64,000 nucleotides of DNA from a virus (IMGVR_UViG_3300020112_000918:1-64000), one strand, 5' to 3'; counted from the first letter of the stretch, positions 652 to 57,288 are shown. A program made the numbers and translations. Notes: generated by a model from the letters alone, not told the origin.

Positions 652-1293
652 ATGAAGAAAACAGAATTCGAATTAGCATGTGGCGCAAAAGCCGGAAATC
701 AGGAAGACCTTTTACAGCTTTGGTCTTTGTACAAAAACGTTTGTATGAGCATTCTTTACAAGGTTGCTCACCTTGAAAACGAAGAACTTGAAAGCGAAGC
801 ATTTATCGTTTTCAGTCACAAACTTGACTTATTCGACCCTAACAAAATTGGAGTTAAGCCAGAGAGCTGGAGCTTCAGTTTTATGGTTACAGGTGGAATG
901 AAGAACTTACGCAGCAAACTTATCAATGAGAGCAAACGCTACAATGAAGTAGTTAAACTCTCGTATGTAGAAAGTGATGACGGAGAAGCTACTGAGTCTG
1001 TAGCTCAGTCCTCACAGGATAAAATCAACTATCAGCTTTACGGGGCACACACATTCGACGTTTACAATCCGGAAAAGTTGGTTATCGCTCAGGAAGACCC
1101 TTTGGATGCAAGAGTAAGACGTTTCTACTCTCGCTTGTCAGCATTCGAAAAAGCCTTGCTTGAAAAACGTAGGGCAGGACTTAAGCTCCAGGAAATTGCA
1201 GATGAGTTCGGTTGCTCCCTCAGCAAAGTAAAAGCACACCTTAAATACGCTAAGGAAATTGCATCTAGCGTATTCGAAGTAGCTTACGCTTAA
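652..1293 (+). CDS. phage sigma-70 family RNA polymerase sigma factor
   Basis: Region-2-like AKAGNQEDLLQLWSLYK...ELESEAFIVF and region-4 HTH LSAFEKALL..RRAGLKLQEIADEFGCSLSKVK; GGAG SD before ATG 652. Confidence 0.8.
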   Translation: MKKTEFELACGAKAGNQEDLLQLWSLYKNVCMSILYKVAHLENEELESEAFIVFSHKLDLFDPNKIGVKPESWSFSFMVTGGMKNLRSKLINESKRYNEVVKLSYVESDDGEATESVAQSSQDKINYQLYGAHTFDVYNPEKLVIAQEDPLDARVRRFYSRLSAFEKALLEKRRAGLKLQEIADEFGCSLSKVKAHLKYAKEIASSVFEVAYA

Positions 1294-1340
1294 ATAGAAA
1301 ACAACGGGCTGCCCGATATGACAGCCCGAGGAGATCAGAT

Positions 1341-1526
1341 ATGATTAAAGAACTTTTAGACCAGATTAAGAACGGAAGAACTAAAGAAGACTTTGTAGCA
1401 GTAAAGGACGCACTTCTTATTATCGCAAGCAACATGTATTACGACGACAAACTTACCAACTCGGAATACAATGAGATCTGTGGGCTCTTAATGAGCATGA
1501 ACGAAATTGTAGCCAAGGCTAACTAA
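1341..1526 (+). CDS. hypothetical protein
   Basis: GAGGAG SD, operon context. Confidence 0.6.
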   Translation: MIKELLDQIKNGRTKEDFVAVKDALLIIASNMYYDDKLTNSEYNEICGLLMSMNEIVAKAN

Positions 1527-1536
1527 GGAGACCTTT

Positions 1537-1929
1537 ATGATTTACACAAACAAAGAAGACATTGTCAACACTTTAAAAAATCAGATTAAGACAGACAAAC
1601 TTACTGCATGGCGAGCACTTAAACGCATCTACGAAAACCAGACAGCCGACGAACAGAGAGCAGAAGTAACACGTTACGAAAACGGAGTAGGCTTTACAGG
1701 AACAGATAGCGAATTCCTTTCAAGCCTTGCTAAGCAGCTTCTTGAAAGAGGCAGCCTGTCAGACAAACAGACTGGCTTCCTTTTCAAGCTGATGCCAAAA
1801 TACGCACGTCAACTAGTTGAAGGCTCTATCGCCGAAGGAAAAATCATTCACAAATACAACCGTTATTTCACAACTCAGGATGAACTTATTATTTACGAAA
1901 CAGAACTGAGTAACAAGAAGACAGCTTAG
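1537..1929 (+). CDS. hypothetical phage protein
   Basis: AAGGAG SD; 130-aa ORF. Confidence 0.65.
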   Translation: MIYTNKEDIVNTLKNQIKTDKLTAWRALKRIYENQTADEQRAEVTRYENGVGFTGTDSEFLSSLAKQLLERGSLSDKQTGFLFKLMPKYARQLVEGSIAEGKIIHKYNRYFTTQDELIIYETELSNKKTA

Positions 1930-1940
1930 GAGGAAGGAAT

Positions 1941-2577: not shown

Positions 2578-3546
2578 ATGAGGATTTTAATCTCGCACAG
2601 AGATCTTGACGGACTAGGAGTCATTGTTCTACGAGACTACTTTAACTTGCCTTTTGATGCAGTTTATTCCTGGGACTACGGATTTATCGAAATTCCAGAA
2701 TGTAAAAAGATTATTGACGCTGCCGACGAAATTATTATGGCAGACCTTTCCATTCCGGAAGAAAGTTATGATGAACTTATTAAAGCCGGAAAGCACGTTG
2801 AAATCTATGATCACCACGATACAGCTAAATGGCTCGACACAAAAGAAGGCAGTGTCCACGATGAAGAACGCTGCGGAACAAAAATCTTCTTTGAAGAATA
2901 CGTGCTTCCACGTGTAGGACGATTTAAGCCGATTGTAAAACAGTTTGTAAACTTAGTAGATGTTTATGACCGTTGGGTTCTTGACTCTCCTTTGCGTAAG
3001 GAATCAGAAAACCTTCAGAGAGTCTGGACAGCTTACGCAAACTGGAACTGTCCGGACAACATTATGCAGCATGACCGATTTATTATGCAGATGTGCCGAA
3101 AGTTTGACAGTATGACATCTTTTGCTTGGAACGTCACAGAGCAGTCTTACATTGATACAGCAATTCAGAAAGAAGAAAACTCTTATCAACAAGCGTTAAA
3201 CGTTATTCAAGACCGAGTAGACAATCAGGGAAGAACTTTCGGTATCTGGAAAGCGTGGGGTAGAATTTCTATTACAGCGTCTCGCATTCTTAGAGAAACA
3301 GACCGTTATGATTACCTTATCTGTCTTCAGGATTCTCCTGACAACTGGGGAAAAGTTTCTGTAAGATGTCTTGAAGAAAAGTTTGACGTAACTCAACTTG
3401 CTTCCGTAGGAGGACATAAAGCTGCGGGTGGAACAACTCTTTCTGCAGAAGATGCGACAGCTTTGTGGGAAAGTCCTTTGTGCTTTAAGTACGGGGCTGA
3501 CTGGAAAGAGGGCGAAAGTCCTATTGAACCTTGTAAATCATTTTAA
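2578..3546 (+). CDS. DHH/DHHA1 family phosphoesterase (NrnB-like)
   Basis: Motifs HRDLDG, ADLS, YDHH, SVR, GGHKAAGG. Confidence 0.85.
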   Translation: MRILISHRDLDGLGVIVLRDYFNLPFDAVYSWDYGFIEIPECKKIIDAADEIIMADLSIPEESYDELIKAGKHVEIYDHHDTAKWLDTKEGSVHDEERCGTKIFFEEYVLPRVGRFKPIVKQFVNLVDVYDRWVLDSPLRKESENLQRVWTAYANWNCPDNIMQHDRFIMQMCRKFDSMTSFAWNVTEQSYIDTAIQKEENSYQQALNVIQDRVDNQGRTFGIWKAWGRISITASRILRETDRYDYLICLQDSPDNWGKVSVRCLEEKFDVTQLASVGGHKAAGGTTLSAEDATALWESPLCFKYGADWKEGESPIEPCKSF

Positions 3547-6296: not shown

Positions 6297-8402
6297 ATGA
6301 AATTTACTTATATTAAACTTATCAACTTCGGTAACAACAAGAATTTTGAGAAGACTTTGGATAAGCCTTTGCTTATTTTATCTGGGGATAACGGTAACGG
6401 AAAAAGCACTGTTATCAAAGCAATTCGTCTTGCAGTATTTGACTCTTATGACGGAGTTTTAAGCGATTACGTCAATTGGGAAGCAAAAGAATTTTACATT
6501 GAAATCGGATTTAACCACAAGGCAGTAGATTACAAGATTACTATCCGATACGATGGATCAACAGAGCGTAAACTTGAGTTCGGGTCAGAAACTTACTCAG
6601 GCGATGAAGCTAAGCGAAAACTCAAGGAAATTCTGGATCCAACCTTATTAAAAGCAGCTATGCTTTCTTTGGAACAGGAAACAGACGTTGTAAACGCAAA
6701 GCCCGCAGAAAGACGTGATCACCTTAAGAAAATCTACAACTTAGACTTCAAGCAGCCTTTAGCAGATATTGATGCTGAACTTAAAGAGCATTCTTTGAAT
6801 GTAGCTAAACTTACTTCTACTGTTGAGAGCTTAGAAAATAAGACGTATCTGGAACCAACGAAGCCAGAAAAACCTTTTTCAGAAGAAGTGAAAGCAACTT
6901 ACGAAAAAGAGCTTGCTTCTATTCAGGTAAATCTTGCTGACCTTAAAAAACAGTCCGAACAAGCAAAGAGCAACCGTGAGCAGTATCAGAGATTACTTGA
7001 CGAACAAACTTCCCTGACTTCTAAAAAGGACTCCGAGAAGCAATCCTTGGACGTGCAGAAAGCCAAACTTGCTAAACTTCCAGAAGACGAGCAGAATGAA
7101 AAGATACAGCTTGAAACTCAGTTAAAGGACTGTGCTCAGGATAGAGCTCGTATTGAAGGAGAGATAGGAGAAAGCATTCAGCAAAAACAGAAAGAACTTG
7201 CTTCTACAAAATCCAGCCTTAAGCGTGTAGGCGTATTCGATCAGGATTCTTATGTAACTCTTAAAGCTGAAGTTACTTCTTTGGAGAACAAACTTTCTGA
7301 CTTAAGAAATGCAACAGACGTTTGTCCTACTTGCGGACAGAGTATAAACTCTCCTGAACATATTGCAAAGAGAGACGAAGAGATTAAAACCTTAAGCTCT
7401 ACTCTTGAAGAAAAGCGTAAAGAGTATGAACAGAAAACCTCTGCCAAGAAAGTTTACGATGAAGCCGTTACTCACAACCAGAAAGTAAAGGACACTTGTG
7501 CTGAACTGGAAAAAGAAATTACCACTTTAACAGCAGACAAGGAAAAGCACCTTTTAACTTGTGAGTCTAACACTAAGTCTGTAGAAACTGCTATCGGAGT
7601 TCTTTCAGAAAAATACGCTACTGAAAAGTTGCACGTAGAAGAGCTTATTCAGTCTATTGAAAAGAACATTAATCAGATAGAAGAAAATCTGGCAAAGAAC
7701 TTGTCTGAAGCAGAAAGTCTTAAAGGTCAGATTTCTGATATCGATTACTCTTCTGAGATTAAGAAACTTGAAGACGAAGTTGCAGATTACGATGCTAAAC
7801 TTAAGAGCTTTGCTGACTACGAAAGTCAGGTAGTCTTCTACAAAGACACTATGGCTAAGGTCGACGAACAGAAAAAAGAAGATGCTAAGCGTCTTGATGA
7901 AATTAAGACATCTCTGCAGGAAGAATCGGCTACAGTAAAAGACCGTGAAATAGAAGCTAAGCTGCTTAAAACGGACTTCCCTGTTTACGTAATTTCAAGA
8001 GTTGTGAAAGACCTTGAAAAGCGTATGAATGAATTCCTTAAGAAAACCTACGGTGGTCGCTATACTGTAAAAATGAAGGACAAGGGAAATGCTCTTCACA
8101 TTGTTTACGGTCCGAAAGATCAGGATGTAGCTCTTTCTTCTGGCTATGAAAGAAGTTTGTTCAACCTTGCTTTTAAGATTTCAATTTCTAGAGCTATTGG
8201 TAACAAGTGTCTTGTTCTTGATGAAGCAGACAGTGCTGCCAGTCCACGTAACGCTAAACTATTTTATGAGGTGCTTGCTCAGACAGTGGGAACTTACTTT
8301 GATCAGGTCATCCTTGTATCTCATAAAGATGAAGTAAAAGAGATGCTGGAAAACGAGTACGGGGCAGAAGTCCTCACTTTTGTAGGAGGTGTTGCTTCGT
8401 GA
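6297..8402 (+). CDS. SbcC/Rad50/gp46-like SMC ATPase
   Basis: GDNGNGKS Walker A, coiled coils, CPTC zinc hook, LSSGYE signature, LVLDE. Confidence 0.9.
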   Translation: MKFTYIKLINFGNNKNFEKTLDKPLLILSGDNGNGKSTVIKAIRLAVFDSYDGVLSDYVNWEAKEFYIEIGFNHKAVDYKITIRYDGSTERKLEFGSETYSGDEAKRKLKEILDPTLLKAAMLSLEQETDVVNAKPAERRDHLKKIYNLDFKQPLADIDAELKEHSLNVAKLTSTVESLENKTYLEPTKPEKPFSEEVKATYEKELASIQVNLADLKKQSEQAKSNREQYQRLLDEQTSLTSKKDSEKQSLDVQKAKLAKLPEDEQNEKIQLETQLKDCAQDRARIEGEIGESIQQKQKELASTKSSLKRVGVFDQDSYVTLKAEVTSLENKLSDLRNATDVCPTCGQSINSPEHIAKRDEEIKTLSSTLEEKRKEYEQKTSAKKVYDEAVTHNQKVKDTCAELEKEITTLTADKEKHLLTCESNTKSVETAIGVLSEKYATEKLHVEELIQSIEKNINQIEENLAKNLSEAESLKGQISDIDYSSEIKKLEDEVADYDAKLKSFADYESQVVFYKDTMAKVDEQKKEDAKRLDEIKTSLQEESATVKDREIEAKLLKTDFPVYVISRVVKDLEKRMNEFLKKTYGGRYTVKMKDKGNALHIVYGPKDQDVALSSGYERSLFNLAFKISISRAIGNKCLVLDEADSAASPRNAKLFYEVLAQTVGTYFDQVILVSHKDEVKEMLENEYGAEVLTFVGGVAS

Positions 8403-8872: not shown

Positions 8873-9834
8873 TACGGGAACCAACAGAATATGAAGCACG
8901 TAACTTGTTAATAAGCTCCGGAATTCGTTTCGAAGACAAGGGACATTATTTTTCTATTAGATGTCCCTTCCATAAAAATGGTATGGAAAAATCGGCTTCA
9001 GCTGCTTTGTATAAATCTAATTGGTTCTTTAAGTGCTTTACTTGTAATGAGGGTATGCCGTTCCACAAGCTCTATCAAGAGCTGAAACACGAACCCTGGA
9101 ACGAGCATGGAACAATTAAACTAGTAGAAAAAGATTTATACGAGCGACGAATTCAGGCTCTTGAAAAAGAGCGAAGTTCCTTTGAGATAGTAGCCGGAAA
9201 AATCACAGAAGTCTACGATAACGCAAAAGCCTTAGCATACTGCCGAAGTAGGAGTTTGTCGGATGCTTTTATAAAGGAGTTCAAAATCCGAGCAACGGAT
9301 CTTTGCCAGTTTAAGAACAAGAAACTGTGGCGAGACAGACTTCTTATTCCGATCTATTATCAGGGAGAGCTTTACTCTTTAGAGGGTCGAGATTACTTAA
9401 GAACGCAAGTTCCTAAATGTCTTTATCCGAAGGATGCTCAAGTAAGTATCTGCTTTAATCAAGACAACTTGAAGAAGGATGAGCCTTTAGTTGTTTGTGA
9501 AGGACTTATGGACATTCCGAAAGTTTGGGATCACGTGACAAAGAATGTTACTGTAACTTTCGGAGTAAGCCTTGCTCAAGAGCAGAAAGATTTTTTAAAA
9601 GACCATAAAAACCTTATCTTGTTTATCGATGACGACGAAGCAGGACACAGCTCGATAGACTTTTTTGAAGGCTTTATGGAGAACGATTTTAAGGTAGCGA
9701 GAGTACGGGGCAAAGACCCAGGAGACTCTACTCCGGAAGAAATCGAATATGCAATTTCCCACGCTAAGCCGTTTGGGGAATTTATAGTAGAAGAGTCAGG
9801 ACTTTTTACACATGACAAGTTCTCGCTCTGTTAA
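8869..9834 (+). CDS. DNA primase (CHC2 zinc finger + TOPRIM)
   Basis: CPFH...CFTC; VCEGLMD; IDDDEAG; KDPGD. Confidence 0.88.
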   Translation: MIREPTEYEARNLLISSGIRFEDKGHYFSIRCPFHKNGMEKSASAALYKSNWFFKCFTCNEGMPFHKLYQELKHEPWNEHGTIKLVEKDLYERRIQALEKERSSFEIVAGKITEVYDNAKALAYCRSRSLSDAFIKEFKIRATDLCQFKNKKLWRDRLLIPIYYQGELYSLEGRDYLRTQVPKCLYPKDAQVSICFNQDNLKKDEPLVVCEGLMDIPKVWDHVTKNVTVTFGVSLAQEQKDFLKDHKNLILFIDDDEAGHSSIDFFEGFMENDFKVARVRGKDPGDSTPEEIEYAISHAKPFGEFIVEESGLFTHDKFSLC

Positions 9835-9867
9835 TAATTTACGGAATTACAATTTGTGGAGGATAAA

Positions 9868-10929
9868 ATGAACCTTTTTCAGACAACGGATCATCACTTA
9901 AAAGACGAAGAGCCTTTCTTCCAAGCAGGAAAAGCCTTAGACGATTGGCTTATAGATTTTTTCAAAAAGCAGACAGAACCTTTTATCTATGTAGACTCTG
10001 GAGATCGTTACCACGTTTCAAAAGAAACAGGACGTGTAAACGGAGAAGTAGCTAAGTTCTTCTTAACCCTTGCAGCTTTACCTAATTGTCAAGCTATCTG
10101 GTGTATTCAAGGTAACCATGACTTCAAAGTAGACACAGGATCAGCTCTTGATACTATCTGCGGGCTTTCTTCTAAAATTCAGGTAGTTTATGAACCTACT
10201 ATTCTGCAGTTTCCAGAGCAGACAGGCTATACTCTGTTTCTTCCTCACATGAAAATTAAGCATCTGCCTTACTACAACGGAAGAGAAACTTACGGTAAAG
10301 AAGAATTTTATCAGCAGTATTTTTCGAACTGGGAAACTTACAAACCTAAGATTGAATTTATTTCTGCTCATCTCGGAGATGAAACCTGTGGCGAACTTTT
10401 ACAAGACGCAGACCTTTCTCTTTTCTCTTGTATGAAGTCTAACGGGCATATTCACAAAACCGTTTCTAAAAATCAGCTTGAATCAGCTGCTGTTACTCGT
10501 AGAGATGAAGTTGATAAAAAGTGTATCATGCGTAAGTTTGATACAAAAGATTTTTCAAAGTTTGAAGAAATTGAACTTCCTCTTTTCTTGAACTACGCAA
10601 AGATCGAGTACGGGGCTTCTCTCGATGACTATTTTAAGAATCCTATTCATAAAAAGCCGGAAACTTCTCTTATTGTAGACATTTACGGACATGACAACGC
10701 AGACTTTGTAAAAGATGAATATACTAAAAAGTTTGCGGGAACTTCGAACCCTAAACTCTACGTAGGTGACGTAGTCGCAGAAGAAAGACTTTTGAAAGAC
10801 GACGAAGAAGTTGAAAGAGAAGATCTGGACGTTTCCGACGCAGACCTTATTCAACTATTTAACGAGTTCTGTGAAGAAAAAGGAATTGTAGATTCTGTAA
10901 GGCAGAGCGTCTTAAAAAGAATTTCATAA
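9868..10929 (+). CDS. SbcD/Mre11/gp47-like metallophosphoesterase nuclease
   Basis: TDHH, SGD, GNHD, GHIH motifs; near the SbcC gene. Confidence 0.85.
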   Translation: MNLFQTTDHHLKDEEPFFQAGKALDDWLIDFFKKQTEPFIYVDSGDRYHVSKETGRVNGEVAKFFLTLAALPNCQAIWCIQGNHDFKVDTGSALDTICGLSSKIQVVYEPTILQFPEQTGYTLFLPHMKIKHLPYYNGRETYGKEEFYQQYFSNWETYKPKIEFISAHLGDETCGELLQDADLSLFSCMKSNGHIHKTVSKNQLESAAVTRRDEVDKKCIMRKFDTKDFSKFEEIELPLFLNYAKIEYGASLDDYFKNPIHKKPETSLIVDIYGHDNADFVKDEYTKKFAGTSNPKLYVGDVVAEERLLKDDEEVEREDLDVSDADLIQLFNEFCEEKGIVDSVRQSVLKRIS

Positions 10930-13919: not shown

Positions 13920-13934
13920 GGAGCAAAGACAACA

Positions 13935-14567
13935 ATGAGTAAGAAGATGGAATTTTTACCAATTGAAATGCAGAGAGCGCAGCGTGACATACAGCGTTGT
14001 GGCTTGGCAACGAAAATTCAGGACTACGACCTTACTCAGCACAGTTACGGGGTCTTATCAATTTGTTTAGACTTGGTAAGACTTCTGCAGCTGGAGCCTT
14101 TGTCTCAGACAGAGGTTGAGCTGATTATGAGACATGATTTAGCTGAAACTTTTACAGGTGATTTACCTTGGGTAGTTAAAAACATGTCTGCAGAAGTAGA
14201 AGAAAGATGGGCTTTCATTGAGGAATCTGTTCTTCAAGAAAAAGCAAAAATGTATCCGGAACTGGAAAACTACTCAGACAAGAAAATTGAGTCAACTCTT
14301 TCTCCGGAAAAACTTAGACTGTTCAAGATTGCAGATATGCTTGACTTGCTTCTTTACTGCTGCAAAGAGGAACAGCTTGGAAACGTAACAGCAGAAATGC
14401 AGCTTATTCTGAGAAACGCTCAGAAAATCACTATGCTCCGAGTCCAGGACTTTTGTAAAAATCACCCTTGGCACGATGAAGCATTAGCTGTATTCCGCAC
14501 TTATATAAGGTCAGCTAATTTCCCACGTTTATCAAAATGTTCGGAATTAGATATTTTGGAGGATTAA
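13935..14567 (+). CDS. HD-domain 5'-deoxynucleotidase (YfbR-like)
   Basis: QHSYGV, RHDLAETFTGDLP, KIADMLD. Confidence 0.85.
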   Translation: MSKKMEFLPIEMQRAQRDIQRCGLATKIQDYDLTQHSYGVLSICLDLVRLLQLEPLSQTEVELIMRHDLAETFTGDLPWVVKNMSAEVEERWAFIEESVLQEKAKMYPELENYSDKKIESTLSPEKLRLFKIADMLDLLLYCCKEEQLGNVTAEMQLILRNAQKITMLRVQDFCKNHPWHDEALAVFRTYIRSANFPRLSKCSELDILED

Positions 14568-14573
14568 ACCAAG

Positions 14574-15176: not shown

Positions 15177-15187
15177 GGAGACAACCC

Positions 15188-44075: not shown

Positions 44076-45881
44076 ATGGCAGTTATTAAATTCGACTATA
44101 ATTCCGTTCTGGAAAGACTTAAGGCAAGAGTTCTTGCTCGACTTGGAGGGGAACAGATTCTGCTTTTCTCTACTAACTCGGCTTTCCTTGAAGCAGCTGC
44201 TGAAGAATTTGCGGACGCAGCTCTTTATGATGAATTTCTTACCCGTGAAGCAGTCTGGGAAACAGCTCAGGGTTACGGTTCTATTATGAAGCAGGTAGGC
44301 TTCTACGCTTACAAACCTCACAGAAAAGTTGGAGCTACAGGTCAGGTTCGTTTGTCTACTTCTTCTAGTTTTGACGGTTCTTGGGGAACTAATATAAACA
44401 TCCCTAAGTTTTTTCAGGTTTCAGGTGGCGGACTTTCTTTCCTTACTAAAGAAAGCACTTATCTCGCTGCAAATGCAAACTATGTAGATGTAACTGTAAT
44501 TCAGGGAGAAAAGATTGAACGCTCAGTCGAAATTACTTCAACTGCTTATCCTGAGCTTAAATACGCTACAGTAACTATAAAAGACTCAGACATTGAAAAC
44601 ACTCTATACTCTGTAAAAGTAAACGGAACTGTTTGGACTGAAGTAGATTCGATTCGTCTGGCTTCTTCTAATGAAGACCTTTTCTACACTTTGAAAACTT
44701 TGCCAGATTTTTCTGGAGTTGAAATATCATTCGGTAACGGAGTATTTGGTAGAAAACTTGAATACGGAGACACTGTGACCTTTGAATACCTACAGACAGC
44801 TGGAGCTAACAGCAATGTTCTTTCTAGTGGAATCATAACTTCTGCTGATACAAAGATTAAAGATGAATCTGGAACAGAAGTTACTTTCTATTGTACTAAC
44901 TTAGACGCTCTTGTAGGTGGATCAGGATATGAAAGTATCAATGACATCCGTTCATCTGCACCTCTTTCTTTTCAGACAGGTAACCGTGCTATTTCTTCTT
45001 CTGACTATGCTACTTTAATTAAGCAGACAAACTTAGTAGATAAAGTTCAAGTATGGGGAGAAAAAGAGATTAACGAAGACGCTGGAAACAGACCTGGAAC
45101 TTATGTAGAATCTTCTGAAAACCTGATTTACATAACAGGAATTACAATCGACTCAGAAACAGGTACGGGGCTTCCTTTGTCTGAAACCTCTAAAACTCTT
45201 ATTCGTGAAGCTCTTAATGACAAGAAAGGAACTACAGACATTCTTCAGTTTATTGATACTCAGATAGTTTATGTAACCTTTAATTCTGAAGTCTATATTT
45301 CTAACACAAAATATTCTTCAGAACAGGTTGTGGGAAATATTCACAAAGCTCTAGCAGAAGAGTATGCTCTGACAGGTTCTGCCTACAAAAAGAATCTTTA
45401 CTTCTCAGACTACTACAGAACAATAGATGCTGCTGAGGGAGTTGACCATCATAAGACTTCTCTCTCATTTACAGAATTTTATAATTTCTCTTCTGCTTAC
45501 ATGTTAACCGCAAATCTTAACTTGTCTAATATCGCTCCAGGAACTGTTAAGCTCTTTATTAGAGATGCTTCTCAGGATGAAGACTGGAAAGCTCTGGGAC
45601 ATGATAATGGCTACGGCTTAATCCTTGGAGATGAAATCGATCCTAGTGATCCTTCAAAGGGTAACTATGACCTGAATTCTGCTTCTATCTCATATAGCGA
45701 TGGTTCAATTGGAAACATTCTTGTTTCCTATGGCTTGTCACAGCCTTTCTCTAACTATCAGATAAAGATTGAATTCGGTCAGCAGGATTCTGAAGAAGGC
45801 GACCTTATTTTGAAATACAGACAGCAGTTGTTTGCTTTCTACAAAGACAAGATCACTACTCATATTATGGGGGTTGCTTAA
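44076..45881 (+). CDS. baseplate wedge protein (gp6/baseplate J-like)
   Basis: FLTREAVWETAQ, ISFGNGVFGRK, GGSGYESINDIR..AP...NRAISSSDY. Confidence 0.88.
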   Translation: MAVIKFDYNSVLERLKARVLARLGGEQILLFSTNSAFLEAAAEEFADAALYDEFLTREAVWETAQGYGSIMKQVGFYAYKPHRKVGATGQVRLSTSSSFDGSWGTNINIPKFFQVSGGGLSFLTKESTYLAANANYVDVTVIQGEKIERSVEITSTAYPELKYATVTIKDSDIENTLYSVKVNGTVWTEVDSIRLASSNEDLFYTLKTLPDFSGVEISFGNGVFGRKLEYGDTVTFEYLQTAGANSNVLSSGIITSADTKIKDESGTEVTFYCTNLDALVGGSGYESINDIRSSAPLSFQTGNRAISSSDYATLIKQTNLVDKVQVWGEKEINEDAGNRPGTYVESSENLIYITGITIDSETGTGLPLSETSKTLIREALNDKKGTTDILQFIDTQIVYVTFNSEVYISNTKYSSEQVVGNIHKALAEEYALTGSAYKKNLYFSDYYRTIDAAEGVDHHKTSLSFTEFYNFSSAYMLTANLNLSNIAPGTVKLFIRDASQDEDWKALGHDNGYGLILGDEIDPSDPSKGNYDLNSASISYSDGSIGNILVSYGLSQPFSNYQIKIEFGQQDSEEGDLILKYRQQLFAFYKDKITTHIMGVA

Positions 45882-47626
45882 TGAGTGACGACCTTTACAC
45901 AGAAAAACGAATTCCTCCTGTTCTTAAGGGAACTATATACCAGACTTTTCTTGAAGCTATTGCGGAAGAAATTAGTCTTTTCCGAGATCAGATGTATCAG
46001 CAGAAAACTTCTTTCTATGACCCTGAGAAAATGGAAAAAGAACGACTAATCCAGATATCAGAAAACTTCGGAGTTCCTTTCTCAACCGTTGTTCGAGATG
46101 ATCTTGACTTTTTAAGACAAGAAGTAAATAACATTGGATTTAAACTGTTCTACAAAGGCACTCCTACCTTGTATAAGTCTTTCTTTTTGTCTATCGACAG
46201 AATCGGTCAGATGTTTATTTACACATACTCTTCTGCATCAAACTACCTGCAGAGAAGTATGAAAGACCCTTGTGACTCAGCAGCTTCCACAGATAAGAAT
46301 CTTCCTTTTCTGTTTAAGTCTAAGAATGACTTCTCGGGCGTAGTAAAAGACTTCCTTACTTTGGACTCTGGATTTATTTTGGATGATTCTCCTGCCTTTA
46401 AGCTCGATACAAGTAATTCTAAGATTTCTTCAAACCATATAGGTCTTGAATACTTTATCGATAGAATAATTCGTAAAAATAATAAAGACTACCTTATGAC
46501 TGATGAGTATCTTTTGTTCTTGTCAGAAAACATTAACTGGGGAAGACGCTGTAAAGAAGTTCCTCATATCGGCTCCCAGCTTTCTATCCAAACAGACTTG
46601 TCGGGAAAGATTAATTTTCTGTTCCCTGATCAAGAATTTTCCGTTCCTTCTCTTAAGACAAACGTAGTTGCTAGTCCGAACTTGCTTGATTACATTTCTA
46701 GTCAGTACGATATTACGGAAGCAAGGTTCGGAATAGGGTCGAAAATTCTTCCTTCTGTTCAGAATCCAGACATACCTTTCCCTACTGACCTTGAATCTAC
46801 TGTAGCTGTTATGTCTGTAAATTCTTCAGATACTTACGAAAACGAAAGCTACGTAGGAGCTACAGGAGAATACATCGGACAGGAAATTCGTCAGCTTAAG
46901 ATTAAAGATGACTTTTCTGGTTCAGAAACTCATTTTAATTTTACTTTACCTCTGGCTCCTATACGTAAAGGGAACGTCTGCTTGTCTATAAAGCAGCACG
47001 GGCTTGCAGATCCTCTTTACGTTCTTGATGATAAAAAAGGTATCTTCAAGTCTAATAAGATGCTTGGTTCTATTGACTATGAAACAGGAAACTGCACTCT
47101 TGATACAGACTTTGAGTACGATACCTCTTACGTTGTTTCAGACGCTTTTTCTGAAGAAGACCCTGGACTCTGGGCTTATGTCGTAGACAAAGATGAAACT
47201 GACCTGACTCCAGGCTCTGTAAAGATTACGTTTACAATGGGAGAAGGATCTTCTAAGAAGACTTACACAGTAGCTGATGACGGAGAGGGACATTTCCAGA
47301 GCAGCCCCGTAATTGTTGCATCAGAGATTAACTACGAGTCTGGAGAAATTCAGATTCGATTCACGCAAACTCTTTCAAAAGATTCTTCTATAGAAAACAA
47401 GTATTCATACCATGTTTCTTGGAAGCCAGAAGCAGAAGATATTCTTTATGCTTCTTACTTCTTCGTCTTGAACTCTATTGAGATTACAGAACTTGGATTC
47501 TTCAATACGAAAGGAGATCTGCTCGTTTATGCAACTTTTCCTCCTCTTCAGTTCTCTTCAACAGAATTTCATTGCAACTTTACGATTCTTGTTGATAAGA
47601 AAGCTGCGGAAGAAAAAACAGATTAA
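45881..47626 (+). CDS. baseplate wedge protein (gp7-like)
   Basis: YKGTP motif, C-terminal ITELGFFN..GDLLVYATFP; follows the gp6-like gene. Confidence 0.65.
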   Translation: MSDDLYTEKRIPPVLKGTIYQTFLEAIAEEISLFRDQMYQQKTSFYDPEKMEKERLIQISENFGVPFSTVVRDDLDFLRQEVNNIGFKLFYKGTPTLYKSFFLSIDRIGQMFIYTYSSASNYLQRSMKDPCDSAASTDKNLPFLFKSKNDFSGVVKDFLTLDSGFILDDSPAFKLDTSNSKISSNHIGLEYFIDRIIRKNNKDYLMTDEYLLFLSENINWGRRCKEVPHIGSQLSIQTDLSGKINFLFPDQEFSVPSLKTNVVASPNLLDYISSQYDITEARFGIGSKILPSVQNPDIPFPTDLESTVAVMSVNSSDTYENESYVGATGEYIGQEIRQLKIKDDFSGSETHFNFTLPLAPIRKGNVCLSIKQHGLADPLYVLDDKKGIFKSNKMLGSIDYETGNCTLDTDFEYDTSYVVSDAFSEEDPGLWAYVVDKDETDLTPGSVKITFTMGEGSSKKTYTVADDGEGHFQSSPVIVASEINYESGEIQIRFTQTLSKDSSIENKYSYHVSWKPEAEDILYASYFFVLNSIEITELGFFNTKGDLLVYATFPPLQFSSTEFHCNFTILVDKKAAEEKTD

Positions 47627-47727: not shown

Positions 47728-49287
47728 ATGTCTGAAAAAATAGTTGAATGTTCTATTTGTGGAAAAATCCATAAAGTTTGCTCTTATTATATTTCAGAGA
47801 GAACTTTTACTCCTCATGAAGTTACTTGTCCTGTATGCGGAAAAATCTTTATTATAAAGTGGCAAGCAGCTCAAGCTCGTCAAAAAGAAAATGTAGATGA
47901 GTCTTACTGTGCAAAATGTCTTCAAAAACATACTGCTTTAAGACTTTACGGAGTAGAATACCCTATGCGTTCTCCTAAGATTGTCGCAAAAGCTAAGGCA
48001 ACTTGTTTAAAGAAGTATGGAACTTCTTCTCCTCTAAATAAAGAGTGCTCCGTTAGAATAGAACATGAAAAAGAATTTAAAGAAGGTTCTATAAAGGGAG
48101 GACAAGGAAAAGAATCTCCTTTTAAAGACCCTCAAATAAGAGAAAAAGCCCGTAAAGTCATTAAAGAAAAATACGGGGTAGACAATGTAATGAAATCCGA
48201 CGAAATTAAGTCTCGATTTCAGAAAACGATGATAGAAAAATATGGTTCTCCTTGGGCTATGCAGTCAGAGCAGCTTAAACAACGAATGAGTGATTCTTGC
48301 TTGAAAAATAATGGAGCACCTTGGCCAGCTCAAAGTCCAGAAATTCGAAAACAAATGTCTCAGACCTGTTTCGAAAAATATGGAACTATTCATCCTAATA
48401 TTGGATCTCAGTCTAAAGAAGAAAAAGAAATTTTTAACTATATATCATCTTTAGGGTTTAAACCGATTTCAGGATTTGTTGACTGGGGAACGGGAACTCA
48501 AGAAATAGATATCTTTATTCCTGAACTAAAAGTAGGATTTGAATATAACGGTCTTTATTTTCATTCTACAGCCTGTAAAGTAAATCCTCTTTATCATCAT
48601 GAAAAATCTGTCAAGGCTTTAAACTCAGGGATTAAACTTTATCACTTATGGTCGAGAGAAGATCTTTCCTTGCTTAAAAGTGTTGTAGCTTCTAAACTAG
48701 GAAAGTGTAAGAAACTTTATGCTCGAAATCTTACTGTAAAGTCTGTTTCTACACTAGAAGCTAATAGTTTTTATAATAAAAATCATATTCAAGGCTCTGT
48801 TGGAGTAAGCTCATTTCATTATGGACTTTTTGAAGGAGATACTTTAATATCTTGTATGTCTTTTAGAACCTTTCACCCAGGAACAGTAGAGCTTTCTAGA
48901 TTTGCAACTCAGCAATTTACTCAAGTTATAGGAGGATTTAGTAAGCTCTGGTCTTATTTTGAAAGACATAATACAAAGTACTTGCATGCAGTATCTTTTG
49001 CCATGAGAGATATTTGTCCTGTTTGGCAGGAAACTGTTTACGCTAAAACGGGATGGAATAAAACTTTAGAGTACTCTAATCAATTATTCTACACAGACTG
49101 TACTCGACTTCTTAATAGACAAAACTTTATGAAACAAAAATTAAAAGACTTGTGGGAATGGAAATCGGAATATAATTCAATGACCGAAGTTCAAATCTGT
49201 CAAGACCATGGAATTTATGCTATTTATAATTCGGGCTGCTGGAAATTTGAAAAAGACTTAGTCCCTCTAAATCGGAAGCCTATTTAA
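47728..49287 (+). CDS. free-standing homing endonuclease (zinc ribbon, KYG repeats, PD-(D/E)xK/Hef-like domain)
   Basis: CxxC motifs, repeated EKYG.., EIDIFIPELKVGFEYNGLYFHS, YARNL, NHIQG, ELSRFA, IYNSG. Confidence 0.78.
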   Translation: MSEKIVECSICGKIHKVCSYYISERTFTPHEVTCPVCGKIFIIKWQAAQARQKENVDESYCAKCLQKHTALRLYGVEYPMRSPKIVAKAKATCLKKYGTSSPLNKECSVRIEHEKEFKEGSIKGGQGKESPFKDPQIREKARKVIKEKYGVDNVMKSDEIKSRFQKTMIEKYGSPWAMQSEQLKQRMSDSCLKNNGAPWPAQSPEIRKQMSQTCFEKYGTIHPNIGSQSKEEKEIFNYISSLGFKPISGFVDWGTGTQEIDIFIPELKVGFEYNGLYFHSTACKVNPLYHHEKSVKALNSGIKLYHLWSREDLSLLKSVVASKLGKCKKLYARNLTVKSVSTLEANSFYNKNHIQGSVGVSSFHYGLFEGDTLISCMSFRTFHPGTVELSRFATQQFTQVIGGFSKLWSYFERHNTKYLHAVSFAMRDICPVWQETVYAKTGWNKTLEYSNQLFYTDCTRLLNRQNFMKQKLKDLWEWKSEYNSMTEVQICQDHGIYAIYNSGCWKFEKDLVPLNRKPI

Positions 49288-50708: not shown

Positions 50709-52664
50709 CTAAAAAAGGTCTTCCGATTCTTTAACTACTTTTTCCGGCTCCTGCTTAGTTCCTTTTACAAGGCTCAAAAACTCTTCTTCTGTGATAACCT
50801 TTGTTCCCTGTTCCTGAGCTTTCTTATTCTTAGAAGATCCTGAGTTTGGATCGTTTGTAACAAGGTAAGTAAGACCCTTAACTACATCGTCCTTAACAGT
50901 TCCCCCGTTATTTTTTACAAGAGCAGCTGCTTCAATTCGCTTCATTGTCTTCAAAGACCCTGTGAAACATACGCTCATTCCCTCGAGGATTCCTTCTGAG
51001 GCATTCTTTACGGAAATGTAGGAAAGTGTTTCTCTCATGTCATCCAAGTTAGTTCTGAGTCCTTCTACAAACTTCTTTGCAAATTCTTCTCCTACACCTG
51101 GACAGATGCAGTCTTTTTCTGTTAAAGTAGAAAGGTCTTTGATAGAAGTCTTCTTGGTTCCGGAAATAATCTTCTTAGCGATACTAGGACCAATAGAAGG
51201 AATATTGAATCCTGCAATGAAGTCCGCCAAGTCCACTTCCTTTACAGAAGACAGATTACGCTTAATTCCTTCTGCAGATTTTGCTCCGAACCCTTCCAGC
51301 TTTTCAATAGCCCCGTAATTTATTTTGTAAAGAGAAGAAATTGTTCCATCGACAATTCCTGCATCAAGCAGCTTGCCCAAAGTTGTAGGAGCAAGTTCTT
51401 TTATTCCGAAGATGTTTACCCACTTATTCATCTTTCCAACTTTGATAGAAGAACAGAAAGGATTTAGACACTGTGTCTTAGTGCGGTCCGCATTTGTGTA
51501 AAGTTTATTTCCACACTCTGGGCATTTTTCAGGAACGAAGATTTCTGTCTCTCCTGACATATGCTGATAGACCTTTTCAATCTTAGGAATAATTTCTCCA
51601 CGCTTTGTAACAGATACTTTACATCCGATCTTGAAACCACCTTTTTCGATTAAGCCGATGTTGCACAATGAAGCCTGTTTAACAGTTGTTCCACAAAGAT
51701 GAAGAGGAGGATCAAGCAATCCGATAGGAGTGAAAGTTCCATTTGTCAGAGACCACTGAATTCCTACAAGCGTAGAAACAAGTTCTTCTCTCGGGAACTT
51801 GTATGCTATCTGAGTTTCCGGCAAAAGATTTCTTAGATCAGCGTTGTCACATGCATTCTTTTTAAGAACAATTCCATCCAAGTCATAAGGAAGTTCTGAA
51901 CGGTGACCGTTTACACGAAGCATGATTTCAGTCAGCTCTTTAGCAGAAGCTTCTGGAGTTGACTTTACTCCGAATCCTGTAGTATCTACTGTTTCAAAGC
52001 CCTGACCTCCAAGCCAAGATATTTTCTGGCTTTCTCTGTCAAAAGTCTTATTGTCATCTTCATACATCACATCGTAGGTAACAATGTGGAGCAGTTCGCA
52101 GCCTTCTCCGTTTTTGCGTTTCATAACTCCGGAAGCAGCGTTACGACAATTAGCCATCTGAGGAAAGAATTTATTCTTTTCTTCATGGAACATAAGAACT
52201 TCGCCCCGTACCGAGCCTGTAAAGTTGTCATTCAGCTTTTTGATACAGCCTTGCATCTTAGCTACATTTTCTGTGATGTCATCGCCTACTACTCCATCTC
52301 CACGAGTTACTCCTGCGGAGAAAACTCCGTGCTTGTAGTAAAGTTCAATAGAACATCCATCCAGCTTAGACTGAACTAAGATCTGTTCAGTAGGCTTAAA
52401 CTGGGTAAGCCATTTTTCGACTTCTTCTGCTGAGTTGGCTTTCTGCTGGCTTCCCATAGGAATTATGTGCTGCATCTTTGGGAATCCATCCAAAGAGTCG
52501 TCACCCACTTTTTCAAAAAGTTCATTATTAGGGTCAAGGCTTTTAAGTTCATCCCAGAGATTATCAAACTCAGCGTCTGAGATAGTTGCCTCGCCTTTGT
52601 AATAGTTGTCCTGATGCTGCTTGATAAGATCTTCAAGTTCCCGTATGCGTTCAGTGTTTTCCAT
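50709..52664 (-). CDS. ligA: NAD-dependent DNA ligase
   Basis: ISDAEFD, SKLDG, TRGDG..GDDIT, RNAASG, DGIVLK, C4 zinc finger, BRCT. Confidence 0.95.
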   Translation of the reverse strand: MENTERIRELEDLIKQHQDNYYKGEATISDAEFDNLWDELKSLDPNNELFEKVGDDSLDGFPKMQHIIPMGSQQKANSAEEVEKWLTQFKPTEQILVQSKLDGCSIELYYKHGVFSAGVTRGDGVVGDDITENVAKMQGCIKKLNDNFTGSVRGEVLMFHEEKNKFFPQMANCRNAASGVMKRKNGEGCELLHIVTYDVMYEDDNKTFDRESQKISWLGGQGFETVDTTGFGVKSTPEASAKELTEIMLRVNGHRSELPYDLDGIVLKKNACDNADLRNLLPETQIAYKFPREELVSTLVGIQWSLTNGTFTPIGLLDPPLHLCGTTVKQASLCNIGLIEKGGFKIGCKVSVTKRGEIIPKIEKVYQHMSGETEIFVPEKCPECGNKLYTNADRTKTQCLNPFCSSIKVGKMNKWVNIFGIKELAPTTLGKLLDAGIVDGTISSLYKINYGAIEKLEGFGAKSAEGIKRNLSSVKEVDLADFIAGFNIPSIGPSIAKKIISGTKKTSIKDLSTLTEKDCICPGVGEEFAKKFVEGLRTNLDDMRETLSYISVKNASEGILEGMSVCFTGSLKTMKRIEAAALVKNNGGTVKDDVVKGLTYLVTNDPNSGSSKNKKAQEQGTKVITEEEFLSLVKGTKQEPEKVVKESEDLF

Positions 52665-54478: not shown

Positions 54479-54492
54479 GGTATTTACTCTCC

Positions 54493-55023
54493 TTACCGTA
54501 TTGGTGCATATTTCTGTCTTGCGTTAGCACGATCTTCAATATTAAGAGCACGAAGTTCTGAACGAAGATTTACTGCCAAGTTGGTTAAAACGTTGTCAAA
54601 CTTATTAAGTGTTTCTCTCATGCGAATGTAGTGATCGCATTTCATTTCTGCTTGCAGAAGTTTTCTCTGCCAAGCAAAGTAGTCCATCTTGTGAGTAACC
54701 TTAACTTGCTGCTCAATTTCTTTAAGAGCAGGCTTTGTAGATTTTCCAGTATTTTCTGCCATGAGAAGTTCTTTTGCTTCATGGAACCATTGAGCATAAA
54801 GGTCTTCATACTCCAGTTCAAGGGCAGCTTTTTCTACTTTTACTCTCTGGTATTCTTCATTCAGCATACGACAAGTATCGTAGTACATACTTAAAGCGTA
54901 GTTAACTCTGCCAGGAGTTACTTCATTCCCAGTAGCGATTTCTCCGATCTGTTCATACTTCTTAGAAGTAGACTGAACAAAGGCGATATACTCGTCTATG
55001 AGAGCTTCATTTTCTTTTGTCAT
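54493..55023 (-). CDS. UvsY-like recombination mediator (putative)
   Basis: All-helical coiled coil; C-terminal NLAVNLRSEL. Confidence 0.5.
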   Translation of the reverse strand: MTKENEALIDEYIAFVQSTSKKYEQIGEIATGNEVTPGRVNYALSMYYDTCRMLNEEYQRVKVEKAALELEYEDLYAQWFHEAKELLMAENTGKSTKPALKEIEQQVKVTHKMDYFAWQRKLLQAEMKCDHYIRMRETLNKFDNVLTNLAVNLRSELRALNIEDRANARQKYAPIR

Positions 55024-55047
55024 GTCTTATCCTCCAACTTTTATAGA

Positions 55048-55524
55048 CTAGTTGTCTTTCTTCTTTTTGTAGCGTTCCCTGTTTTCAAGAACACGCTTAG
55101 CAAATACTATGTTCTGCTTTTCACAAACTATATGGTTTGTTAAAAGCTCAACTGTATGCTTATAAATTGCAGAAGCAGCTGATCCTTGATTAAAATAGCG
55201 TGACTCTTTTATTTTGTAGAACTTATCATTCTTGTAGTAGTAGAGTCCCCATCCTTCAGGAAGTTCTTCTGGTTTTATAAACTCACCGAAACAAACGTAA
55301 TATCGCTTATCTCCAAACTGTGGCTTTTTACGGGCTTTCTTGTACTTGTCTGCAAGAAAGTCTGAACGGCTCATTTTTATTTCATACAAATCTGTATGAG
55401 CTGAAGAGTCAAATACAAGAACATCTGGCTTTTCAATTCCAAGCATTGTAACCTCAAATAAAGCCATAGTCTTGTCATTAGCGAAACGCTGCGCAGTTAT
55501 TTTACAAAGTTCAAAGTGTGTCAC
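55048..55524 (-). CDS. PD-(D/E)xK nuclease-like protein (MmcB-like)
   Basis: KPDVL...YEIKMSRSDFLAD...GDKRYY...ELPEGWGL. Confidence 0.75.
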   Translation of the reverse strand: MTHFELCKITAQRFANDKTMALFEVTMLGIEKPDVLVFDSSAHTDLYEIKMSRSDFLADKYKKARKKPQFGDKRYYVCFGEFIKPEELPEGWGLYYYKNDKFYKIKESRYFNQGSAASAIYKHTVELLTNHIVCEKQNIVFAKRVLENRERYKKKKDN

Positions 55525-55527
55525 TTA

Positions 55528-57288
55528 TTATAATTCCGTCGCAAAGTAGAAGCCAAACAGCTTCTTTAAAGAATTTATTTCCCCGTAGTCTAAATCAAGT
55601 TTTATGTCCTGCTCTGAAACAGCTACTACTTGAGCTAATACTCCGTTATTTAAGACAACAAAGTCTGACTCGTTTAAGGTAACAGTGTCTGACGTAAGAC
55701 GAATGCATGAGCATCCTTCCAAAAGAGGAAGAGGTGTGAACGGAATGCTCTTAGACACTATGTCAGACTGAGCTGAATAGGAATTAAACGTATCGGCTCG
55801 AAGAATAGGTGAATCTCCTTCTTCATCGCAAGCAAATACTCGGAAGAATGTATTTTCTGTAGGAGGTTCAATAACTTTCTCTGTAAGTAAAAATCCGTTT
55901 TCATTCAGCCCCGTAATTGTTTCAGCTCCTGCAGTTAGCCAAGCGTCGTTAGTCAGATCTGCAAAAGAAGTAACTGTCTTACGTATGAGTTTGTATTTAT
56001 TGGCTGGAAGCACGTTTTTCCACACTACATGAGTTTCCCATCTTTTGATAGACTTGTCCAGATTAAGAACTGCTTGATTAAAGACACCTTGAATCTCGGG
56101 AACAGAGAGCCAAGTATTAACATCATCAGAAAAAGCCTTTACGCTTTTATCTGCATTAGCAAGACCCTTAACAGCATCTTCATAGATCTGAGGAAGTCCC
56201 TCAAGAACTGTATACGGTCCGTCAGGCTTTTTGACAAGCTCCTGCACCCAGTAGACAAGACCTTTACGAGTTCCTGAATCCGGAGTTCCAAGCTGTGAAG
56301 AGCTCTGATCAGACAAAGCATTGTAGTCTGAGATTAAAGTATTACAGTCAGCAACCAAGTCCTGAAGTTTAGAGTTAATAGAAGCTCTGTTTGAAGAAGT
56401 ACCCGAGCTTATTGAATTAAAGTAAGAGCGATAAGATTCTATCTTAGTAGTATCAGCTCCAACTTTTGTTAAGCAGTCGTTTAATCGACTTATGTCTCCA
56501 GGAAGGTCTATCTGGAATTCTTCAAGGATTGCTCCTTTATTGTTGATTGCGTTTACAGTGTCATTTAAACAAGTCTTATAAGCAGAAAAGCCGTTTAGTA
56601 AAGCATTAATCTTTCCTAACAGATCAGACTTAAACGAGTAGTCGTCTGGAGTGTCAATTCCGTTCTGACCTATATACCAGACTCCCTCTCCTTGCATATA
56701 AACTTCACTATTTTCAGTTCGCTTTCCTAAGTAGCCCGAGCCTTTATCCTTATCTGCTTGTGCTTTAGCAAGCTCCTGAGTAAGATAAGGACCTCGCATA
56801 TTTCCGTTAGAGGAAGCAACCGTTCCGATAGCTGCGATAAGGTCTTCACAAAACTGGCGAACACCAGTGCCTGAAGGAGATCCCGTAGACTCTAATGAAA
56901 AAGAATTAAGCCATTTAGAGTTTACGTTGAAGTCTTTCTGAGCTTTTTCAGTAGGCTGTCCTTCTTTCAGTTCAGGAGGATAAAGACCGTCGGCTCCGTC
57001 TCCGGAACCCGTAACGCAGAGAGAAAGATTTTTCTTATACTGAGTAGACCAGTCTCCACTAAAATCAGGAGTAGAAGTTTTTCTTCCTGCAGTTAATCGA
57101 GCCTGTTCTAGATAAAGAGCAACAACTTTCAGAATTCCCTGATCAGTTCCGTTTCCGAACAGAATAGGGTGTAAGTCATCTCGTCTAGTTTCTGTTTCAA
57201 TCTTAAGATTTCTTACAGACCTTAGAGACATGACTGCATTAGACCGAGTAGTTCTTGCTTTTTCGTATTCTTCTGCGTATGAAGTCAT
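55528..57288 (-). CDS. large hypothetical protein, possibly virion-associated
   Basis: 586-aa ORF; helical N-terminus, beta-rich C-terminus. Confidence 0.55.
   Translation of the reverse strand: MTSYAEEYEKARTTRSNAVMSLRSVRNLKIETETRRDDLHPILFGNGTDQGILKVVALYLEQARLTAGRKTSTPDFSGDWSTQYKKNLSLCVTGSGDGADGLYPPELKEGQPTEKAQKDFNVNSKWLNSFSLESTGSPSGTGVRQFCEDLIAAIGTVASSNGNMRGPYLTQELAKAQADKDKGSGYLGKRTENSEVYMQGEGVWYIGQNGIDTPDDYSFKSDLLGKINALLNGFSAYKTCLNDTVNAINNKGAILEEFQIDLPGDISRLNDCLTKVGADTTKIESYRSYFNSISSGTSSNRASINSKLQDLVADCNTLISDYNALSDQSSSQLGTPDSGTRKGLVYWVQELVKKPDGPYTVLEGLPQIYEDAVKGLANADKSVKAFSDDVNTWLSVPEIQGVFNQAVLNLDKSIKRWETHVVWKNVLPANKYKLIRKTVTSFADLTNDAWLTAGAETITGLNENGFLLTEKVIEPPTENTFFRVFACDEEGDSPILRADTFNSYSAQSDIVSKSIPFTPLPLLEGCSCIRLTSDTVTLNESDFVVLNNGVLAQVVAVSEQDIKLDLDYGEINSLKKLFGFYFATEL

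Follow-up and report, generated by a model that had tools for sequence, protein, structure and literature searches.

A strict eight-nucleotide DNA word dispersed through the genome of a probable treponeme phage, and what may read it

A short word over-represented in a viral genome

Why would a short, G-rich DNA word recur in all three reading frames of phage genes, spelled in rare codons? This question is raised by the virus record IMGVR_UViG_3300020112_000918, a sequence of 133,795 bp that we label G0 and whose first 64 kb constitute the window analysed here. A reading made from the sequence alone had listed 25 copies of the heptamer TACGGGG in the window, 17 of them extending to the 8-mer TACGGGGC, and had taken them for a transcription-oriented signal, possibly Chi-like, on which selection acts at the level of the nucleic acid. 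All 25 positions and strands were recovered (those on the minus strand are exact to within 1 nt), as was the extension of 17 copies to TACGGGGC (Table 1). The over-representation is likewise borne out: the 25 copies of TACGGGG stand against 1.22 expected and a maximum of 5 in any dinucleotide shuffle, and the 17 copies of TACGGGGC against 0.28 expected.

Across the whole genome there are 41 copies of TACGGGG and 29 of TACGGGGC (about one per 4.6 kb), the latter split into 15 on the plus and 14 on the minus strand. A Markov-corrected k-mer count (order 2), which the sequence-only reading had proposed as a check, places TACGGGGC first among all 8-mers of the genome, with 29 copies versus 0.6 expected (z = 36.6). 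Twenty-seven of the 29 copies lie wholly within called open reading frames (ORFs; 28 if one ORF overlap is counted), a proportion equal to the 94% coding fraction of G0. The sense copies are distributed over the three frames, 6 of them encoding Tyr-Gly-Ala, 8 (Leu/Val)-Arg-Gly and 8 x-Thr-Gly-x. The word is accordingly read as TAC-GGG, NTA-CGG-GGC and ACG-GGG, as described earlier, with codons that are rare in this phage (CGG accounts for 4% of the codons for Arg, GGG for 9% of those for Gly and ACG for 6% of those for Thr).

Selection acts on the DNA itself

We shuffled synonymous codons in such a way that every protein and the codon usage of each gene were preserved. None of 1000 shuffles reached the observed number of copies, either in the sense (22 observed versus 0.98 expected) or in the antisense orientation (6 versus 0.27; P = 4e-7). 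The enrichment outlasts this codon-preserving shuffle, the very test by which the sequence-only reading had proposed to be judged, and together with the use of three frames this rules out a codon or dipeptide artefact. Counted by opportunity, 22 of the 56 places in which the word could be written synonymously in the sense orientation are filled (39%; 0.53 expected), as are 6 of the 29 antisense ones (0.10 expected). Because the word occupies three frames, uses rare codons, survives the codon shuffle and is enriched on both strands, selection acts on the DNA itself and not on the protein, as had been supposed. That about 40% of the synonymous opportunities are filled with a word made of rare codons implies an important and previously unrecognised interaction between the phage DNA and an enzyme.

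The word is real and strictly defined. Its 24 single-mismatch variants together occur 30 times, which is background (22.8 expected); TACGGGGT is the sole enriched variant (7 copies versus 0.89 genome-wide), and internal single-mismatch variants are slightly below expectation (10 versus 16.8). An extended logo shows A at position -2, T or G at position -1, TACGGGGC itself, and then any base other than C. Copies of TACGGGG that lack the following C are nearly all frame-0 Tyr-Gly pairs and lie earlier in genes; some of them are perhaps no more than ordinary pairs of codons.

Table 1. Copies of the word and of its heptamer core in the window.
Element	Position	Strand	Orientation and frame	Gene and remarks
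TACGGGGC	1039..1046	+	sense, frame 0 (Tyr-Gly-Ala)	within sigma-r4-like gene 589-1293
TACGGGGC	3490..3497	+	sense, frame 0	close to 3' end of RecJ-like DHH gene
TACGGGGC	8358..8365	+	sense, frame 0	3' end of SbcC gene
TACGGGGC	9704..9711	+	sense, frame 1 (Val-Arg-Gly)	DnaG-type primase gene
TACGGGGC	10609..10616	+	sense, frame 0	SbcD gene; sole copy kept in every covering relative (G1, G3, L100)
TACGGGGC	13741..13748	+	sense, frame 1	TTA CGG GGC; in G1 CTG AGA GGA, same Leu-Arg-Gly
TACGGGGC	18868..18875	+	sense, frame 1	5-hmdU DNA kinase gene
TACGGGGC	19130..19137	-	antisense	gene 18270-19271
TACGGGGC	25888..25895	+	sense, frame 1	
TACGGGGC	30742..30749	+	sense, frame 2 (Thr-Gly)	
TACGGGGC	33263..33270	+	sense, frame 0	stop codon 20 nt further on
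TACGGGGC	39415..39422	+	sense, frame 2	middle of tape-measure gene, GGT ACG GGG CTT; in relatives synonymous GGA ACA GGA TTG
TACGGGGC	45164..45171	+	sense, frame 2	baseplate wedge gene
TACGGGGC	47304..47311	-	antisense	gene 45881-47626
TACGGGGC	51310..51317	-	sense, frame 0	NAD ligase gene; retained in G1 and L103
TACGGGGC	52203..52210	-	sense, frame 1	NAD ligase gene; in relatives GTA CGT GGT
TACGGGGC	55908..55915	-	sense, frame 2	
TACGGGG then T	14046..14052	+	sense, frame 0 (Tyr-Gly)	TACGGGGT is the sole enriched variant
TACGGGG then T	15557..15563	+	sense, frame 0	
TACGGGG then G	16089..16095	+	sense, frame 0	retained in G1
TACGGGG then A	18156..18162	+	sense, frame 0	
TACGGGG then G	23381..23387	+	sense, frame 0	
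TACGGGG then A	24414..24420	+	sense, frame 2	
TACGGGG then T	48172..48178	+	sense, frame 0	
TACGGGG then A	55581..55587	-	sense, frame 0	

Orientation relative to genes

Plus-strand genes extend from 122.7 kb through the start of the record to 49.9 kb and minus-strand genes from 50.1 to 118.7 kb, a layout that is matched by the GC skew. Twenty-three of the 25 TACGGGG copies of the window lie on the coding strand and change strand at the 49.9-kb gene switch, exactly as reported. The conclusion drawn from this, namely that the word is oriented with transcription, did not hold up. Genome-wide, sense and antisense copies of TACGGGGC number 22 and 6 (0.79 sense), and this 3.7:1 ratio is what composition yields: the expected sense fraction is 0.72-0.80 (78% in the codon shuffle and 72-77% in Markov models built on coding strands from which the copies had been removed; binomial P = 0.60). 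The enrichment is about 22-fold on sense and antisense strands alike, and antisense copies are also conserved in relatives of G0, for example at genome position 98780 in G1 and at 122129 in G3.

The sense bias is compositional because the word is G-rich and the coding strands of this phage are G-rich; with both strands equally enriched, nothing about the reader of the word can be learned from the flip at 49.9 kb. There is no evidence that orientation relative to genes matters, and the main argument for Chi-type, promoter-type and mRNA-type readings, as well as for one modelled on the FtsK-orienting polar sequences (KOPS), is thereby gone. This holds a lesson of method: a G-rich word will track the coding strand and flip at gene switches by composition alone, and a strand-aware null is needed before a Chi-like or transcription-linked function is deduced from orientation.

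Distribution along the genome and within genes

Between 0 and 56.5 kb and between 94 and 134 kb the copies have a mean spacing of about 3.4-3.9 kb, which is more regular than random (coefficient of variation 0.59; P = 0.015 and 0.067). The intervening 56.5-94 kb are nearly empty, the interval of 56-94 kb having 3 copies. Of the 19 synonymous opportunities in this part, 1 is filled, versus 27 of 66 elsewhere (Fisher P = 0.004). We considered and rejected the idea that this segment is compositionally foreign, since its GC content, its GC content at third codon positions and its CpG frequency match those of the rest of the genome. The word-poor stretch of 37 kb, which begins at 56.5 kb, carries the genes for the tail sheath, a second diversity-generating retroelement (DGR2), the transfer-messenger RNA (tmRNA), the portal and an SNF2-family helicase (genome 89420-91294, -). 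Parts of it are unusually close to relatives (81-94% versus about 76%), and recent exchange may have taken place there.

Within genes, sense and antisense copies alike tend to be found late (mean relative position 0.68; Kolmogorov-Smirnov P = 0.003), while the unused opportunities are uniformly distributed. One copy, at genome 72691-72698 (-), consists of TAC joined to the obligatory GGGGC at the 5' end of the tmRNA. We treated it as accidental because GGGGC is obligatory at that place and because it is the sole copy with C at position -1. The tmRNA itself (genome 72320-72695, -; Rfam, 88.5 bits) specifies the tag peptide DNDYSMKAAA.

The phage, its probable host and the privacy of the word

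G0 is a myovirus, as shown by its genes for a tail sheath, a baseplate, a tape measure and a portal of the T4 type. Its DNA metabolism genes specify an intein-split RecA, a RecJ-like DHH protein, SbcC, SbcD, RNase H, a DnaG-type primase, a DnaB-like helicase (genome 130572-131993), a split PolA, a flap endonuclease (FEN), a clamp-loader-like ATPase, an NAD ligase, NrdD, NrdG, a dCMP deaminase and a dUTPase. There is also a full set for thymidine hypermodification, comprising a thymidylate-synthase-like enzyme, two 5-hydroxymethyl-2'-deoxyuridine (5-hmdU) DNA kinases, HMUD2, an amino-acid:DNA transferase and a DUF1599 protein.

The phage GroEL (window 20865-22532, +) is 75-77% identical to that of rumen Treponema species (T. 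bryantii, T. zioleckii), the next best match being 65%, and the named cellular relatives of the phage NAD ligase are almost all from Spirochaetia or Treponema. These affinities of GroEL and NAD ligase make a rumen treponeme the most likely host, and the GroEL match thereby assigns a probable host to a phage family that had not been placed. A Cpn10 gene is also present in the relatives.

The sequence-only reading had named, among other possibilities, a Chi signal for the AddAB or RecBCD enzyme of the host. The host-type genomes do not bear this out. The five Treponema genomes nearest to the phage by GroEL hold 17-59 copies of TACGGGGC per 2.5-3.9 Mb, the same as a reversed-word control, and none of 201 Treponemataceae genomes is enriched. 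Control-level counts in these 206 candidate-host genomes led us to reject a host Chi, KOPS or uptake signal sequence (USS); clusters of TACGGGGC in the T. zioleckii genome proved to be ordinary coding sequence of unrelated genes. TACGGGGC is a phage-private DNA word and a putative recognition word. It resembles the USS and the DNA uptake sequences of bacteria in being orientation-neutral, in using all frames and permissive peptides and in being maintained in density; it differs in that those sequences mark a cell's own chromosome, whereas TACGGGGC marks the phage. A literature search found no paper using TACGGGGC in such a sense.

Several other classes of signal were tried and discarded. A promoter is incompatible with 27 intragenic copies out of 29 and with distances to the next start that vary between 33 nt and over 2000 nt. 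No second, partner word was found within 50 nt on either side of the copies, and no shared fold that would speak for a hairpin or terminator was found around them. A mobile insert or gene conversion was rejected as well, since the sharing of flanks does not exceed a column-shuffle null (P = 0.1-0.3).

The word in related phages

No close relative of G0 was found among 50,697 deposited phages. We compared it with five partial genomes from IMG/VR, ENA and Logan, about 75-80% identical at the DNA level, and with a sixth locus (L100) that is nearly identical to G1. The five genomes hold 7, 2, 2, 1 and 1 copies of TACGGGGC in 62.6, 33.3, 49.9, 15.9 and 22 kb, that is 13 copies in 184 kb versus about 0.8 expected (about 16-fold), and are 3-6 times sparser than G0. 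Conservation among relatives, by which the sequence-only reading had wished its proposal to be checked, is found for this density and not for position, as just 4 of 14 aligned copies are retained in one comparison and 2 of 14 in another. The copies align with the relatives mostly without indels; in place of a missing copy, a relative often has the same peptide in common codons, and copies new in G0 are 3-5 substitutions away from the sequence of the relatives. The word is thus a family trait whose density rather than position is maintained, and the G0 lineage has gained copies.

We also looked for alternative private words in the relatives. The G1 candidate CGATAGCG/CGCTATCG was dismissed as mostly single-frame (Ala-Ile) and weakly above the shuffle, and GTAGGTG as a pair of Val-Gly codons; no dominant word was found in G3.

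Three nuclease genes, described as Vsr-fold (DUF559 / MTES_1575) or DUF7487, are insertions that distinguish G0 from these phages. At 4241-5227 (+), in the recA gap, G0 has a homing-type nuclease of Vsr fold that is lacking in the relatives covering the locus, and DUF7487 nucleases at 47728-49287 (+) and at genome 112223-113119 (-) are absent there from the relatives that cover each locus; G2 and L102 have partial homologues of the former DUF7487 nuclease. Besides the one in the recA gap, one of the three genes splits nrdD. A second 5-hmdU DNA kinase paralogue (genome 106401-107318) is not present at that locus in G1 and G3. That the G0-only nucleases and the second kinase coincide with the high density of the word is an association within a single genome, a correlation only.

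A site-specific nick as the favoured reading

The reading that we favour, tentatively and with less than even confidence, is that TACGGGGC may be the recognition word of a phage enzyme that makes strand starts, i.e., site-specific nicks. A sequence-specific enzyme of the phage lineage would read the word on the phage chromosome and introduce a site-specific single-strand nick at it, as in the phages tf, T5 and phiKMV; at intervals of roughly 3-4 kb, the nicks would make 3'-OH ends available to repair, recombination-dependent replication, packaging or injection. Equal enrichment of both strands is as expected for a reader of duplex DNA. The replication module of G0 has T5-like content (PolA, DnaG-type primase, SbcCD, NAD ligase, FEN and RNase H), and the best phage matches of the primase are found in T5-like, Staphylococcus and Clostridium phages. 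Enzymes of the Vsr type are nickases.

The closest likeness is with the nick sites of phage tf, in which a 9-mer, TACT/RTGMC, occurs 14 times in 46 kb; these words are mostly intragenic, 11 of the 14 lie in one half of the genome, they vary between lineages and their function is unexplained, and the few near-variants are not nicked (PMC3517423). The nick word of T5 is R/GCGCRGG, and T5 and phiKMV-like phages show a similar phenomenon (PMC3517423). Our recount of the tf record (53% GC), a comparison confined to strand counts and the record's own annotation, gave 14 matches on the top and 0 on the bottom strand. The nick sites of tf, T5 and phiKMV share with TACGGGGC a strict, asymmetric, phage-private word of 7-9 bp in a dozen or more copies (about one per 3 kb in tf), a mostly intragenic and uneven distribution, rare near-variants, and a word and density that vary among related phages. 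They differ in that they occupy one physical strand, whereas TACGGGGC is found on both, and in that nicking is putative in G0.

Several points weigh against a nick. The 15 and 14 copies on the two strands track the coding strand, versus the single physical strand used in tf, T5 and phiKMV, and the late-in-gene bias is not predicted by the model. No nickase was identified in G0. The nucleases peculiar to G0 resemble the homing endonucleases of split genes, a class whose targets are normally long and unique. Finally, the model covers the pattern more than the purpose, as the function of the T5 nicks is itself unexplained.

The nick sites of T5, phiKMV and tf are the only published parallels and have been unexplained for decades. 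If nicking is the right reading, TACGGGGC would add a further case with cleaner statistics, from a spirochaete phage that is hypermodified and rich in inteins, and would offer a new handle on the nick-site question.

Primase start sites and the crAss-like words

A rather unlikely alternative is that the copies are preferred start sites of the phage DnaG-type primase (8869-9834) acting with the DnaB-like helicase, which would lay down a GC-rich primer, such as pppACGGGGC or pppGCCCCGUA, every few kb in an AT-rich DNA containing 5-hydroxymethyluracil (hmU). The protein encoded at 8869-9834 does have Zn_ribbon_DnaG (CHC2 zinc-finger) and Toprim domains, the helicase is encoded, and the fairly regular spacing, about 3.4 kb, is comparable to the length of Okazaki fragments. 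With the sites of T7 gp4 and T4 gp61 the word would share a zinc-finger primase of the phage's own, a short GC-rich primer and Okazaki-scale spacing; it differs from them in that they specify 3-5 nt versus 8-10 here, far beyond any known primase site, and in that over-representation has not been reported for them. The T7 primase uses the 5-nt sites GGGTC, TGGTC and GTGTC, with a GTC core whose 3' base is cryptic and with pppAC starts (PMC2910064). The complement of our word holds GTA, which could template pppAC, and GC followed by T, A or G on the word strand is also a possible core, but a word that fits as template in either orientation makes this a weak argument. The distribution is a further difficulty: only 2 minus-strand copies lie in 0-50 kb, which would leave one fork direction almost without sites, and the segment of 56-94 kb is word-poor. 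Moreover, the relatives have a primase and a helicase that are 91-95% identical to those of G0, and yet hold several-fold fewer copies.

In favour of a primase one could also cite an unrelated group of AT-rich phages in which the same TACGGGG core occurs at similar density, and a shared physico-chemical need could be at work. Three crAss-like IMG/VR contigs, picked by a 15-mer of the CTCTACGGGGGATTG type, contain TACGGGG 24, 16 and 17 times in 90.9, 60.8 and 68.4 kb, respectively (control, 0); the copies occur in both orientations and mostly within genes of these AT-rich gut phages. The crAss-like CTCTACGGGGGATTG words differ from TACGGGGC in having a context of about 18-20 nt, with C or T before and G or A after the core. 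crAss001, a member of another crAss family, has 0 copies of the word. A reader shared with the crAss-like contig was rejected, as a tblastn search with all ORFs of G0 matched only the dUTPase, and so was a primase link to crAss phages, given the T5-like, Staphylococcus and Clostridium phage affinities of the primase. The common core may be chance, or it may reflect a common requirement of strand-start enzymes. It is an unlikely conjecture that words with a TACGGGG core are undescribed strand-start (nick or primer) signals of unrelated AT-rich phages of gut anaerobes; if true, crAss-like Intestiviridae and a spirochaete myovirus would share an enzymatic or physico-chemical need, and selection would be writing the word through essential genes.

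Binding sites, Chi-like signals and repair

As unlikely as primase start sites is the proposal that the copies are binding sites of a phage DNA-binding protein that does not cut, such as a silencer or regulator of the stoperator type or a protein that organises or condenses the DNA, or that they serve to load the packaging machinery or the enzymes that modify hmU. Dispersed, asymmetric, phage-private sites with orientation-neutral enrichment and regular spacing would suit it. The thymidine of this phage is hypermodified, with two 5-hmdU DNA kinases of which one is found in G0 only, and a T-poor word would remain readable in hypermodified DNA. Hypermodification enzymes work in sequence-specific contexts (PMC8989533). 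Against this stand the intragenic location of 27 of the 29 copies, which at the level of the coding fraction gives no link to promoters or operators, and the strictness of TACGGGGC, since regulator sites usually tolerate mismatches; no candidate protein was identified. The stoperators of Cluster A mycobacteriophages are 20-35 dispersed, asymmetric, lineage-private sites read by a phage protein. They differ from TACGGGGC in that they are 13 bp long, mostly intergenic, tied to transcription and found in temperate phages with a known repressor, none of which is seen here.

Distinctly unlikely, in our view, is a Chi-like signal that tames a helicase-nuclease, be it one of the true host strain, which might have it on a mobile defence element or lie beyond the genomes sampled, or one that the phage encodes and that escaped recognition. 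Like Chi, the word is short, strict, 8 nt long and asymmetric, and E. coli Chi has a comparable density of about one per 4.6-5 kb; conservation of density rather than position also fits, and density differs between phage lineages as if their hosts differed. Chi, however, is a signal of the host chromosome with a leading-strand skew, whereas TACGGGGC is at background in the 206 candidate-host genomes, the maximum being about one per 16 kb in genomes where the control is higher, and its orientation shows no preference beyond composition. A scan of about 80 phage proteins against Pfam or PHROGs revealed none that resembles RecB, AddA or AdnAB, about half of the ORFs having no family.

A functionless molecular drive, in which Vsr-like short-patch repair would restore the word in heteroduplexes formed during co-infection, is very unlikely. 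The three Vsr-fold nuclease genes that G0 has and its relatives lack at those loci, and the slight shortage of internal single-mismatch variants, speak for it, but one-step repair cannot create new copies that are 3-5 changes away from the relatives' sequence, the regular spacing is not predicted, and a 22-48-fold enrichment with 39% saturation far exceeds the known output of very-short-patch repair, for which E. coli CCWGG is the yardstick. A signal read in mRNA, be it a nuclease, protein-binding or pause site, can be dismissed as highly improbable, for although 79% of the copies are sense and lie late in genes, the antisense copies are equally enriched and at least as well conserved, and the copies share no fold.

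Other features of the genome

A second dispersed motif, CGGAATTA, usually followed by TAAT or TAAA, occurs in 27 copies genome-wide (e.g., at window positions 2513, 9842, 12765, 41170 and 53392). It is intergenic, co-oriented with genes, located 10-30 nt upstream of a Shine-Dalgarno sequence and common to the relatives, G1 also having TTCCGGCT. It looks like a phage-specific promoter class of the extended -10 type, possibly read by the sigma-r4-like protein encoded at 589-1293.

Window 9843-9868 and genome 95226-95252 are joined in G1, G3 and L100, which indicates an inversion of about 85 kb relative to G0; its ends are short promoter-bearing repeats in front of sbcD and of the clamp-loader-like gene. 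Another inversion, seen in G1, has its junctions near 31.7 and 61.8 kb.

A complete cluster of hypermodification genes occupies window 12837-19271, where the thymidylate-synthase-like gene is accompanied by those for a YfbR-like nucleotidase, DUF1599, HMUD2, the amino-acid:DNA transferase and one of the 5-hmdU DNA kinases. The gene for the reverse transcriptase of a diversity-generating retroelement (35195-36286) is directly preceded by a match to the Rfam RT-2 RNA (74 bits; window 35000-35205, +). A GHKL (HATPase_c_3) protein of 767 amino acids (genome 100043-102346, -) is 66-68% conserved in the relatives, and a tRNA-Leu(TAG) is encoded by the phage at genome 71292-71371 (-).

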